DNA from: an uncultured Clostridia bacterium
GTDB taxonomy: Bacteria > Bacillota > Clostridia > TANB77 > CAG-508
DNA length: 64,000 nucleotides
Direction: 5' to 3'
Assembly: GCA_947601495.1 (NCBI GenBank)
Contig: CANQGE010000001.1
Coordinates: forward strand, 31,731 to 95,730
Shown: positions 9,563 to 44,975 of the stretch, piece by piece
How positions within the stretch are numbered: the stretch's first letter is position 1
Layout of the letters: each line of letters starts with the position of its first letter
The notes under the pieces: generated by a model
Database searches by the model: none
What the model saw: only the letters and a program-made list of their open reading frames with translations
Told to the model about the DNA's origin: nothing
Position numbers and translations under genes: made by a program

Positions 9563-9638
<76 letters not shown>

Positions 9639-21604: not shown

Positions 21605-21633
21605 TTTACATTCCTCCTATAAATTAATTTTAT

Positions 21634-21709
21634 TTATTTGAAATGTAACCTCTACAATATAGTATTTTGCTTAAAAATAATACATTGTACAAGCTACTCT
21701 TTCAAATAA
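21634..21709 (-). promoter_or_regulatory. imperfect leader hairpin directly upstream of the pnp RBS
   Basis: Outer pairs TTATTTGAAA (21634-43) / TTTCAAATAA (21700-09) and inner pairs TACAAT..TATT / AATA..ATTGTA, separated by a 9x10 internal loop. The structure ends about 15 nt before the pnp RBS. Confidence 0.35.
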
Positions 21710-21837
21710 ATAACCATAAGTATTTTACTATATTAACATAAAAAAATCAAGATAATATTTATTTCTAAGTTCTATCATTTGCATTTGTATATTTTTTAAT
21801 TATTAATTTTATTTTTAGCTATTATTATTTAAATAGC

Positions 21838-21991
21838 TATCTAATATAGTTTATATAATTTAAAGGTAACGCGTAAGCGACCAACCGAAGCGAAAGCGAA
21901 GGGCGATTGGAGCAATCTTCATTTTGTTAATTTTAAAAAAAGAAGATTGCGACACCAAGTTACCGATAAATTATATAAACTATATTAGATA
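21838..21991 (-). repeat. long-hairpin element A: 25-bp perfect AT stem + 98-nt GC-rich core (copy 1 of a 2-copy family)
   Basis: The inverted repeat 21838-21862 / 21967-21991 is perfect. Core 21866-21963 is 91/98 identical to the reverse complement of 44554-44651. It contains a 9-bp helix GCAATCTTC/GAAGATTGC. The strand given is the one sharing sense with copy B. Confidence 0.85.
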
Positions 21992-25699: not shown

Positions 25700-25733
25700 A
25701 AAATCCTCCTAAAAAATTTTTTAATTTAATTTT

Positions 25734-25922
25734 TTATTAACTATATAATATAACTGAATTGCAGCTATCGCTTTTGAAAGTAATTGAGTTAGAATTGCTT
25801 AATATATTTTACGGAAAGAGTTCACAAACTTGTGGAAGGGTGCCGTAAAATGTATTTAGCAATTCTACGAAAATTAGCTTGAACAAGATAGCGAAAATGA
25901 AGTTATATTATATAGCTAATAA
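25734..25922. repeat. long-hairpin element C: 189-nt imperfect palindrome with GC-rich tip
   Basis: Outer arms TTATTA(A/G)CTATATAATATAACT (25734.. / ..25922). Apical stem TAGAATTGCTTAATATATTTTACGG (25790-25814) / CCGTAAAATGTATTTAGCAATTCTA (25843-25867) has 2 mismatches. The 28-nt tip AAAGAGTTCACAAACTTGTGGAAGGGTG is about 46% G+C (about 50% with the flanking ACGG/CCGT pairs). Confidence 0.75.
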
Positions 25923-25967
25923 AGCTTATTTCTAAGTAAAAGTTTTTAAGCAAAAGTATATTTTTAA

Positions 25968-27635: not shown

Positions 27636-28784
<1,149 letters not shown>

Positions 28785-29810
28785 TTATTTTATTAACATT
28801 GCATCTCCGAAACTAAAAAATTTATATTCTTTTTCTACTGCTTCTTTATAAGCCTTCATAATAAAATCTTTTCCAGCTAAGCTAGAAACTAACATTATTA
28901 ATGTAGACTCTGGCAAATGGAAATTTGTTATTAAGCTATCTATGCATTTAAATTTATATCCTGGATAAATAAAAATGCTTGTGTCTGCTTCTATTTCTTC
29001 TACTAATCCGTCTTTATCTGCAACAGATTCTAATACTCTACAAGAGGTTGTTCCTACTGCTACTACTTTTTTTCCTTCAATTTTTGTTTTATTTATTTTA
29101 TCTGCATCTTCTTTTTTTATGTAATAATGTTCAGAATGCATTTTATGCTCTTCAACATTTTCTACTTTTACTGGTCTAAAAGTTCCTATTCCAACATGAA
29201 GAGTTACGTTTGCTATTCTTACACCTTTTTCTTCAATTTTCTTTAATAGTTCTTCAGTAAAATGTAATCCGGCAGTTGGTGCAGCAGCAGAGCCATCATA
29301 TTTAGCATAAACTGTTTGATATTTCTTTTGGTCTTCTTTTGTTGCTTCTGTAATGTATGGTGGAAGTGGCATAAGTCCAACTTGATCTAATATTTCATTA
29401 AAAATTCCTTTATATTCGAATTTAACTTTTCTATTTCCACCTTCTAAAACATCTAAAACAGTAGCTTTTAAAATTCCATCACCAAAATATACTACTGAAT
29501 TTGGTCTTAATTTATTTCCAGGTCTTACCATTGCCTCCCAAATATCGCCATCAATTCTCTTTAATAGTAAAAATTCTACTTGGGCTCCTGTATCTTTTTT
29601 TCCATATAGCCTTGCTGGAATAACTTTTGTGTTATTTATTACTAAGCAATCTCCTGGATTCAAATAATCAATTATATCTTTAAAGACTTTATGCTCTATT
29701 TTATTTTCTTTTTTATCTAGAACCATAAGTCTTGCTTCATCTCTTTTATCATATGGGTGTTGTGCAATTAATTTCTCTGGTAGTTCATAATTAAAGTCTG
29801 AGACTTTCAT
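28785..29810 (-). CDS. queA: S-adenosylmethionine:tRNA ribosyltransferase-isomerase
   Basis: 341 aa; [19 protein letters not shown]..., [10 protein letters not shown] and FFSFGDAM are characteristic of QueA. Confidence 0.97.
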
Positions 29811-29884
29811 TTTAAAATCCTTTCTAAATATTTTTTATTAAATATATTTTTAAATTTATATATAACTTTAAATTTTAATCTTTT

Positions 29885-30086
29885 AATTAGCAAAATTATA
29901 TTATTCAATTAAGTTTTTCCGTTCCAGCTAATTCTTATAGAAATTCTAAAATTATAAAATGCGCCTCTTTCGCTGCTCAAATCTTCGATTTGCCTTCGAA
30001 CATCCCTCATTTTATAATTTAAGAATTTCTATATAAGAATTACTCTCAATCCAAAACTTAATTTCATAATATAAATTTTGCTAATT
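29885..30086. repeat. long-hairpin element D: 202-nt hairpin (two ~30-bp AT stems, internal loop, 46-nt GC-rich tip)
   Basis: Basal stem AATTAGCAAAATTATATTAT..AATTAAGTTTT / AAAACTTAATT..ATAATATAAATTTTGCTAATT. The internal loop is TCCGTTCCAGC vs CTCTCAATCC. Upper stem TAATTCTTATAGAAATTCTAAAATTATAAAATG / CATTTTATAATTTAAGAATTTCTATATAAGAATTA. The tip 29962-30007 is about 50% G+C. Confidence 0.75.
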
Positions 30087-30090
30087 TTAG

Positions 30091-30684
30091 TTAATTTGAA
30101 ATTTTATTAATTATTTCTTCAATTTTCAATCTCAAATCACAATTTTTTGTATTATAAATCACAAAATCTGATTTTTCTATATAAAACTTATCTTCATTTT
30201 GTATATTAAGTCTGCTTTTAGCTGTTTTACTATCAATATTATCTCTTTTGCAAATTCTTTCAATTTTTAAGTTTTCATCTGCAATTAAAGAAATTACAAA
30301 ATCACAATATTTTTGTATTCCAGATTCAAAAAGCAGAGGTGCATCAATTATTACAAATTTAACTTTTGAATCGTTTATATTTTTTATTCTGTTTAATATT
30401 TCATCAACCACAAACTTAAAAGTTAAACTATTTAATTTTTGGCGAGAAGCATCTTCACTATATATTTTATCAGCTAAAGCTTTTCTATTTAAATTGCCAT
30501 CTTTTAGAAAAACTTCTTCACCAAAAGTATTTTTTATTGCTTTTAAATAATCTGTTCCTAAAGTGCTCATTTCTTTAGCGATTTTGTCTGCATCTAAAAC
30601 TACAACATCTTCGCGTTCATTTAAAATTTCACTTAAAGTAGTTTTTCCACTTCCAGAAGTTCCAGTAACTCCAATAATTTTCAA
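30091..30684 (-). CDS. coaE: dephospho-CoA kinase
   Basis: 197 aa with P-loop GVTGTSGSGKTT. TTG start with a GAGGGA RBS. Confidence 0.9.
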   Translation of the reverse strand: MKIIGVTGTSGSGKTTLSEILNEREDVVVLDADKIAKEMSTLGTDYLKAIKNTFGEEVFLKDGNLNRKALADKIYSEDASRQKLNSLTFKFVVDEILNRIKNINDSKVKFVIIDAPLLFESGIQKYCDFVISLIADENLKIERICKRDNIDSKTAKSRLNIQNEDKFYIEKSDFVIYNTKNCDLRLKIEEIINKISN

Positions 30685-44454: not shown

Positions 44455-44521
44455 ATTGCTTAATATTATTAACATTGCTTAATAATATTATTAAATATTA
44501 ATCAATACTATTAATCAATAC
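44455..44521. repeat. two pairs of short tandem direct repeats
   Basis: ATTGCTTAATATTATTAAC / ATTGCTTAATAATATTATTAA (44455-44494), then TATTAATCAATAC x2 (44496-44521), abutting the left arm of element B. Confidence 0.7.
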
Positions 44522-44527
44522 TATTGT

Positions 44528-44677
44528 GAATGCTTAAAAAATATAATTTAATAGTAACTTGGTGTCGCAATCTTCTTTTTTATAAATAAACAAAAGGAAG
44601 ATTGCTCCAATCGCCCTCCGCTTATGCTTCGGTTGGTCGCTTACGCGTTACTATTTAATTATATTTTTTAAGCATTC
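44528..44677 (+). repeat. long-hairpin element B: second copy of the 98-nt GC-rich core, inverted relative to element A
   Basis: Core 44554-44651 is the reverse complement of 21866-21963 at 91/98 identity. The outer stem GAATGCTTAAAAAATATAATTTAATA / TATTTAATTATATTTTTTAAGCATTC is 26 bp with one mismatch. Confidence 0.85.
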
Positions 44678-44714
44678 ATAATATTTTTTGCAATTAATTT
44701 TAAAAATTATTTTA

Positions 44715-44975
44715 TTACTTCTTTTTGAGGTAAAGAAAAAGAACTCTTATTTGAGTTCTCCGTAACATTTCTTCTAATATTTTCTCTGCTACTATCAAAG
44801 GTGTTTGTTTTGGATTTGGTATTGCGCTGATTTTCTCCAAGTATTCTATTTGTTTCTCCCTCGGAAGCTTTTGAGCTTTCTCTACCATATTGTCCAAATA
44901 TTCCATTCGTTCCTTTTCTGTTCTCTGAAAACTTGTTAGACAACTGAATATTGTTCCTGATGGGTAATATACCAT
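44715..44975 (-). CDS. hypothetical small protein in a locally GC-enriched patch (reading frame uncertain)
   Basis: 86-aa ORF with an ATG preceded by AGGGGAAG at good spacing. The helical-looking segment is MEYLDNMVEKAQKLPREKQIEYLEKISAI.... A second frame (44707..44943, TTG start) is also open. G/C-ending codons are more frequent than in neighbouring genes. Confidence 0.3.
   Translation of the reverse strand: MVYYPSGTIFSCLTSFQRTEKERMEYLDNMVEKAQKLPREKQIEYLEKISAIPNPKQTPLIVAEKILEEMLRRTQIRVLFLYLKKK

Follow-up and report, generated by a model that had tools for sequence, protein, structure and literature searches.

A lineage-specific foldback insertion between coaE and queA is inverted as a whole between strain lineages of a rabbit-gut Clostridia species

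The spacer between coaE and queA in an uncultured rabbit-gut Clostridia MAG (~26% GC) carries a 202-bp foldback, element D, which is a lineage-specific insertion, is strongly conserved and inverts as a whole. The copy described here lies in a 64-kb stretch of DNA, which is called the window below. Relatives of the source organism include Candidatus Scatovivens, Clostridium sp. CAG:571 and CAG:492. On balance, we lean towards reading D as a DNA-level invertible palindromic element of the MITE/REPIN kind and not as a stand-alone small-RNA gene; its effect on the host, if any, would be an orientation-dependent one on the processing or translation of the queA-tgt mRNA.

Structure of element D and its place in the coaE-queA-tgt operon

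The features of D and of the locus around it are the following.

29885-30086, no strand: element D, an invertible foldback of 202 bp, recognized by its hairpin (z of -10 to -14) and its strain copies
29885-29917 paired with 30053-30086: outer helix of D
29885-29896: left terminal inverted repeat of D, AATTAGCAAAAT, which holds one inversion breakpoint
30075-30086: right terminal inverted repeat of D, ATTTTGCTAATT, which holds the other inversion breakpoint
29897-29917 paired with 30053-30074: remainder of the outer helix, given from its left arm, with a 1-nt bulge and a 2-3 nt mismatch
29918-29928, plus strand: left side of the internal loop, TCCGTTCCAGC, 11 nt of the 11 x 10 loop
30043-30052, plus strand: right side of the internal loop, CTCTCAATCC, 10 nt of the 11 x 10 loop
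29929-29961 paired with 30008-30042: inner helix of D
29962-30007, plus strand: tip of D, 46 nt, asymmetric and GC-richer
30091-30684, minus strand: coaE (dephospho-CoA kinase), the upstream gene of the operon (Pfam CoaE, E = 2e-43)
28785-29810, minus strand: queA, the downstream gene (Pfam Queuosine_synth, E = 3.5e-144)
27636-28772, minus strand: tgt, after queA (Pfam TGT, E = 1.4e-172)
29811-29884, minus strand: AT-rich spacer between D and queA, including the ribosome-binding site GAAAGGA; belongs to the inserted or expanded intergenic stretch
29951-29980, minus strand: promoter-like TTGAGC-18-TATAAT (10/12 matches), directed towards queA in the window orientation
29990-30018, plus strand: mirror promoter-like TTGCCT-17-TATAAT (10/12 matches), directed towards coaE (antisense)

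The two-tier hairpin of 202 nt, with an internal bubble and a 46-nt tip, that the first-pass annotation had drawn at 29885-30086 is borne out by the coordinates and by the folds. Its outer arms correspond to inverted repeat I9 (26 nt, 88% complementary) and its inner arms to inverted repeat I6 (26 nt, 96% complementary). As RNA, the plus strand folds at -60.5 kcal/mol, compared with -16.8 +/- 3.1 for shuffles (z = -14.1), and the minus strand at -68.1 kcal/mol (z = -10.4); as DNA, the plus strand folds at -44.3 kcal/mol (z = -11.9). In each of these three tests, none of 200 shuffles folded as well as D. When a 220-nt fold was slid along the whole window, -60 kcal/mol or lower was reached at four places only, which are D and three other hairpins, elements A, B and C.

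On the plus strand, the tip is C-rich (CCTCTTTC, CCTTC and CCCTC); its minus strand is purine-rich and Shine-Dalgarno-like (GAGGGATG, GAAGG and GAAAGAGG), and its center is a mini-palindrome, CAAATC-TTC-GATTTG. The C-rich motifs had been placed on the plus strand from the outset, and this asymmetry is real: the unpaired positions of D amount to 22 C and 1 G on the plus strand and to 22 G and 2 C on the minus strand, and all unpaired regions share one strand polarity. GGA motifs of the CsrA type occur in the purine-rich loops of D; any role for CsrA is speculation. Several other readings were tried and dropped. ORFs in the tip, 33 aa and 25 aa long, start from a palindromic AAAATG but have no ribosome-binding site, and their frame changes on inversion. 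A retron msr/msd reading could point to a TTAGC near the end of D, but there is no reverse transcriptase. An integron attC consensus and a tRNA-like T-arm in the tip were also considered from the sequence and discarded.

The flanking genes rnhA, coaE, queA and tgt were confirmed, all on the minus strand, as was the boundary of D set 4 nt past the coaE stop codon. The start of queA at 29810 is 74 nt from the other end of the element. No terminator-like site was found in 29700-30200; the hairpin of D is followed by AAAAGAUUAAAA, and the GC-rich stem with a U run of an intrinsic terminator was not seen there. Since coaE and queA are not separated by a terminator-like site and lie next to each other in sister species, D is probably co-transcribed. 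The plus-strand promoter-like site would face queA after inversion. It should be noted that promoter-like sites around D show no excess over shuffles, so that these sites are a lead only. As the two are roughly symmetric, inversion does not amount to a simple promoter ON/OFF switch.

Promoter-like hexamers in the tip would also suit an independent plus-strand small-RNA gene, either 6S-like or encoding a C-rich regulatory RNA. C-rich loops are typical of regulatory RNAs of Firmicutes, and the extended hairpin with its central bubble superficially recalls 6S RNA (Rfam RF00013). We nevertheless regard such a gene as highly improbable. The promoter-like sites fire outward from the tip, and transcripts from them would therefore exclude the hairpin; a terminator-like site is lacking as well. 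A search of the whole window with Rfam 15 at gathering thresholds returned one tRNA only (9566-9638), and the region 29780-30120 gave only chance hits at E <= 10, with 6S not among them; the best permissive match near D was to MIR8675, a plant miRNA precursor, at 22.4 bits compared with a threshold of 90.8 bits. The likeness to 6S raised by the first-pass annotation is thus unsupported, as no Rfam family, 6S included, reaches its gathering score in the D region. Unlike 6S, D has no covariance-model match and is far too AT-rich and too perfectly paired. Moreover, 6S is a conserved housekeeping RNA, whereas D is absent from the sister species, has no homologue in the sequences searched and has no fixed strand, as described below.

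Orientation, insertion and conservation of D

ENA, NCBI and Logan assemblies yielded three strain lineages of the species. The gene-sense strand carries the purine-rich tip in the window lineage (the window, L001, L086, L087 and L098), and D has the same orientation in the L003 lineage (L003 and L097). In the L083 lineage (L083, L088, L089, L090, L095 and L096), the same site holds the reverse complement of all 202 nt, as seen in six samples/assemblies produced with two assemblers (metaSPAdes and Logan). D is 100% identical in L001, L003 and L097, and 99% identical but reverse-complemented in L083, L088, L089 and L090; L095 and L096 hold partial copies of the inverted form. Indeed, blastn gives a 202-nt match of 99% whose orientation is opposite to that of the surrounding collinear alignment (97.7%/95.3%). 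In the alignment, the tip, the internal loop and each arm mismatch from position 13 inward are reverse-complemented in L083, and the left side of the internal loop, TCCGTTCCAGC, moves across D as its reverse complement. Because the arm mismatches are flipped from position 13 inward, the crossovers lie within the outermost 11-12 bp repeat, AATTAGCAAAA(T).

At the consensus level, the orientation of D is fixed per lineage across 6 + 5 + 2 assemblies, a tally that leaves out four more contigs of the L003 lineage reported as similar, and there is no sign of rapid switching. D is an inverted-repeat-flanked segment that occurs in both orientations, as an inverton does, and it does so across strain lineages. 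The proposal that D acts at the DNA level is supported by this inversion of the whole element in place between strains. An independent plus-strand unit, the alternative offered alongside it, is weakened as a fixed arrangement: relative to the genes, the C-rich strand runs antisense in two of the lineages but sense in the other, which makes strand an unstable property of the locus.

Low-coverage contigs break within D, and one might therefore suspect that the apparent inversion is an assembly artifact of the palindrome. This is hardly credible, as the arm mismatches from position 13 of each end anchor the orientation for reads and k-mers. Six assemblies from different samples (metaSPAdes and Logan) are all flipped, while the other lineages are always unflipped, and the flipped copy has 2 SNPs of its own and lineage-specific flanks. 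The reproducibility of the orientation by lineage, in assemblies from two assemblers, rules out an artifact. The contigs that end inside D are those of L086, L087, L095, L096 and L098, all of low coverage, and they stop at the start of the second arm or at the mini-palindrome of the tip. Since low-coverage assemblies break inside D, such elements are expected to be often missing from MAGs or truncated in them.

In the nearest sister species (L004, L005 and L084, QueA 92-93% identical), the coaE-queA gap is 24-51 nt and contains no element; in the species that carries D it is 280-390 nt. This short, element-free gap shows D to be a lineage-specific insertion, with the presence/absence pattern at an orthologous site that is expected of a MITE. 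Elements A and B are likewise missing from the orthologous spacers of L084, so that these hairpins are recent insertions. They occur about once per 16 kb in the window. As a candidate target-site duplication, a possible AAATTT repeat around a larger inserted block is indistinguishable from chance in DNA of 26% GC. Among more distant relatives, expanded coaE-queA spacers of 150 and 225 nt with weaker hairpins were seen in L014 (3800-4010) and L017 (3730-4010), and L015 (3300-4010) has a spacer of 658 nt with an additional ORF. The coaE-queA spacer may be a recurrent insertion site.

Between lineages, D differs at 0/202 and 2/202 positions, the latter being the 2 SNPs of the inverted copy, and the tip is 100% identical in all three. 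The adjacent D-queA spacer differs at 5 and 7 of ~75 positions (7-9%), and flanking DNA between lineages is ~4% different. A lack of conservation, named in the first-pass annotation as a ground for giving up the element, is therefore not the case within the species, where D is 99-100% identical. As judged from these alignments, the conservation points to constraint or to recent element-specific turnover. That an AT-rich 202-mer is kept nearly perfect argues for function or very recent turnover and is hard to fit with neutrality.

One way to account for a D that is far more conserved than the adjacent spacer is that it is a selected cis-acting RNA of the coaE-queA-tgt mRNA, either a processing/stability hairpin or a translational regulator working via its Shine-Dalgarno-like or anti-Shine-Dalgarno-like loops, whose inversion is incidental to its palindromic shape. 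Its position inside the operon with no terminator found, the single strand polarity of its unpaired regions and the retention, in a relative of element B from another host, of the B tip motifs with a compensatory stem change (see below) are all consistent with this. We consider it unlikely, because an RNA function tied to the sense strand would not be expected to survive inversion, yet a healthy lineage is fixed for the flipped form. In addition, sister species do without D, and the C-rich motifs could pair with the queA ribosome-binding site over only ~6 bp, including one G-U pair.

The stretch between the coaE stop codon and D is variable in length: 4 nt in the window (30087-30090), 72 nt in the L003 lineage (L003:3651-3722) and 115 nt in the L083 lineage (L083:9609-9723). 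It consists of degenerate direct copies, both of the coaE 3' end and, once or twice, of the beginning of the outer arm of D (AAATTAG[C/T]RAAAT). The coaE stop codon itself is TAA in the window and TAG in the L003 and L083 lineages.

Searches for relatives of D and other hairpins that flip

No copy of D other than the same locus in the same species was detected by blastn (word size 7) in the 64-kb window, which represents ~3-4% of the genome if a size of ~1.8 Mb is assumed (that of a related complete MAG), or in ~1.3 Mb of related loci. A fuzzy search of the same sequences with seven sub-parts of D found no other copy either. The terminal-repeat pattern was not found in viral contigs, a 22-mer of the tip had no copy elsewhere in JGI metagenomes, and plasmid and phage collections held no copy of D, the one match being a 33-nt chance hit in a Bacillus phage. 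The absence of related copies, which had also been listed beforehand as telling against D, thus holds in everything searched. In terms of MITE features, D has terminal inverted repeats (AATTAGCAAAAT/ATTTTGCTAATT) and folds back on itself in its entirety, and multiple related copies were not seen in the 64-kb window and ~1.3 Mb of related loci. Its arm sequences, which would recur in a REPIN, have no other copies in the searched sequence. No transposase or recombinase was found by a Pfam scan among the 26 ORFs of the window.

The three other strong hairpins of the window are the following.

21838-21991: element A, with a GC-rich core at 21856-21974 (minus strand)
25733-25923, no strand: element B, a second invertible hairpin, with the 21-bp inverted repeat TTATTAGCTATATAATATAAC
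about 44490-44715: element C, with a GC-rich core at 44543-44661 (plus strand)

Elements A and C share a core that reads GTGTCGCAA, a variable hairpin, TTGCTCCAATCGCACTC, a small hairpin and TCGTTTGGTCGCTTACGCGG, and that always lies inside long AT-rich arms differing from locus to locus. This core is widespread and multi-copy, with at least 80 loci from a metagenome scan; it has no match in Rfam, and of the 17 pairs in its alignment, 7 show compensatory changes. A covariance model of the family (R1), built from 45 members and run over the whole window with filters off, gives 97.5 bits for A, 95.5 bits for C and no match within 29885-30086 at E <= 10, which places D outside the A/C family. Relative to co-directional neighbor genes, members of the family show no strand bias (15 sense, 12 antisense); 14 lie between convergent genes and 4 between divergent genes. 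Such a pattern of strand and placement is what would be expected of selfish or DNA-level elements, and not of sense-strand RNA regulators.

Other hairpins were observed along the way. A conserved hairpin, GTAGCTTGTACAATG...TATTGTAGAGGTTAC, sits in an AT-rich stem at 21630-21713 (minus strand), directly upstream of the ribosome-binding site of pnp; it is separate from element A, is also present in the sister species L084 as well as in L078 and L079, and is probably a pnp leader structure. In related genomes, further long hairpins were seen in L048 (5061-5280), L054 (786-1085), L055 (1116-1415 and 7606-7905), L066 and L067, and some hairpins of these genomes are near-perfect palindromes around GGGACGG...CCGTCCC. 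The L030-type family has two copies 1.5 kb apart (L030:1061-1360 and 2601-2900).

D is not the only element that flips. Element B is inverted in the L083 lineage too (L083:13891-14106), with breakpoints in TTATTAGCTATATAATATAAC; element A is not flipped there. For element C, counterparts in other lineages were sought, and only the strain of the window itself came up. A partial relative of B was found in an alpine-shrew gut metagenome (L103:4171-4246). It keeps B tip motifs (GGAAAGAG and GGAAGGGTG; GGAAAGAGTTCA and GGAAGGGTGCC), and its stem shows a compensatory change from ACGG/CCGT to ATGG/CCAT. When the loci were compared all against all for short inverted matches lying within collinear alignments, two further cases emerged, both in human-gut metagenomes. 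In the first, an A/C member (L138:7435-7604) is inverted compared with L110, L129, L141, L170 and L171, with flanks sharing 99.7% identity with L141, 98% with L129 and 95-98% with L110, L170 and L171. In the second, an L030-type element (L151:402-600) is inverted compared with L173:10407-10605, with flank identity in the 98-99.7% range. A 10-nt bulge of its outer 5' arm is found in the 3' arm as the reverse complement, and the breakpoints fall within the outermost 16-22 bp. The four flipping families have unrelated termini, which makes a single sequence-specific invertase less likely and favors a structure- or end-driven process.

These observations bear on a programmed inverton, in which a dedicated site-specific recombinase encoded elsewhere would flip D (and B) and phase-vary the expression of queA-tgt. 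D is flanked by inverted repeats, occurs in both orientations with breakpoints at the terminal repeats, lies directly upstream of a gene start, is strongly conserved, has promoter-like hexamers in its tip and is preceded by degenerate extra copies of its terminal repeat. Moreover, the termini of B and D share an ATTAGC motif, and both elements are flipped in the L083 lineage. This explanation is distinctly unlikely all the same. The orientation is constant within lineages (6, 5 and 2 assemblies). The promoter-like sites are mirror images, leaving a similar site towards queA either way, and their count is not above that of shuffles. No recombinase was found among the 26 window ORFs, and the flipping elements of other species have unrelated termini. 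In addition, queA and tgt are housekeeping tRNA-modification genes, untypical targets of phase variation.

Possible consequences and comparison with known systems

For D as a DNA-level invertible element, the flip would most likely arise at the base of the hairpin or cruciform, where the terminal repeats could recombine or allow template-switching during replication. In the operon mRNA, D would form an interrupted double-stranded RNA hairpin with arms of ~66 bp, a predicted substrate of RNase III-type enzymes. Its orientation would set the loops of the mRNA, which are expected to be purine-rich and Shine-Dalgarno-like in the window and pyrimidine-rich and anti-Shine-Dalgarno-like in the flipped lineage. 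A broader idea, which we regard as a long shot, is that D, B, A/C and the L030-type elements form one undescribed class of invertible hairpins in low-GC gut Clostridia, each with long, fast-evolving AT-rich arms and a conserved asymmetric tip, and each flipping as a unit. The flip would then be functional, switching mRNA loops between Shine-Dalgarno-like and anti-Shine-Dalgarno-like/Rho-loading forms on housekeeping operons, here the queuosine genes.

Should the flips prove as general as they look in this small census, the long hairpin insertions of AT-rich gut Clostridia would be dynamic DNA and not static repeats, switching strand in place over the time that strains take to diverge. Annotation would then have to treat as unstable both the "strand" assigned to such an element and the small-RNA calls that depend on it. 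Inverton surveys would pick up these elements, although they are not classical switches. As for the mechanism, crossovers in the outermost 11-22 bp despite longer inner repeats need explaining. Located in front of queA-tgt, D could affect the queuosine modification of tRNA through its orientation.

MITEs and other foldback palindromic repeats (Correia, ERIC/IRU, Rickettsia palindromic elements and REPINs) resemble D in several respects. They are small (~100-250 bp), non-coding and intergenic, fold end to end into a long imperfect hairpin and are present in one lineage while the same site is empty in sisters; they are usually co-transcribed with neighboring genes, and several can occur per 64 kb, as in the window. 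REPINs also keep their hairpin through compensatory change (PMC3116915), another likeness. Unlike MITEs and REPINs, D has no second copy in the searched sequence, and no target-site duplication or partner transposase/RAYT was identified for it. REPINs conserve their arms (REPs), whereas the class of D conserves the asymmetric tip and varies the arms, and the REPIN literature that we searched makes no mention of in-place inversion of a whole element.

Invertons are inverted-repeat-flanked segments flipped by invertases, such as C. difficile cwpV and flgB and the Bacteroides promoters (PMC2784873, PMC11892184). D is like them in its size of ~200 bp, its short bounding inverted repeats, its location upstream of a gene, its two orientations and its breakpoints in the repeats. 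It departs from them in that its interior is near-palindromic, so that only ~25% of positions change on flipping; in its mirror-symmetric promoter-like sites; in the lack of an invertase near it, among the 26 window ORFs; and in its targets, which are housekeeping genes.

The small flip-flop inversions of non-coding chloroplast DNA, in the account of Kim & Lee 2005 given in PMC12928735, have boundary repeats of 11-24 bp, form a stem-loop and flip recurrently between close lineages with no dedicated enzyme. The terminal repeat of D (11-12 bp) fits the range given there. The chloroplast flips described in the same source concern loops of 5-50 bp, whereas D spans 202 bp with imperfect inner arms, and its crossovers fall in the outer repeat although longer perfect inner repeats (26 bp) are available. 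D also differs in being a recent insertion in a bacterial genome. By analogy, these hairpin-associated small inversions may be the closest known counterpart of the D flip.
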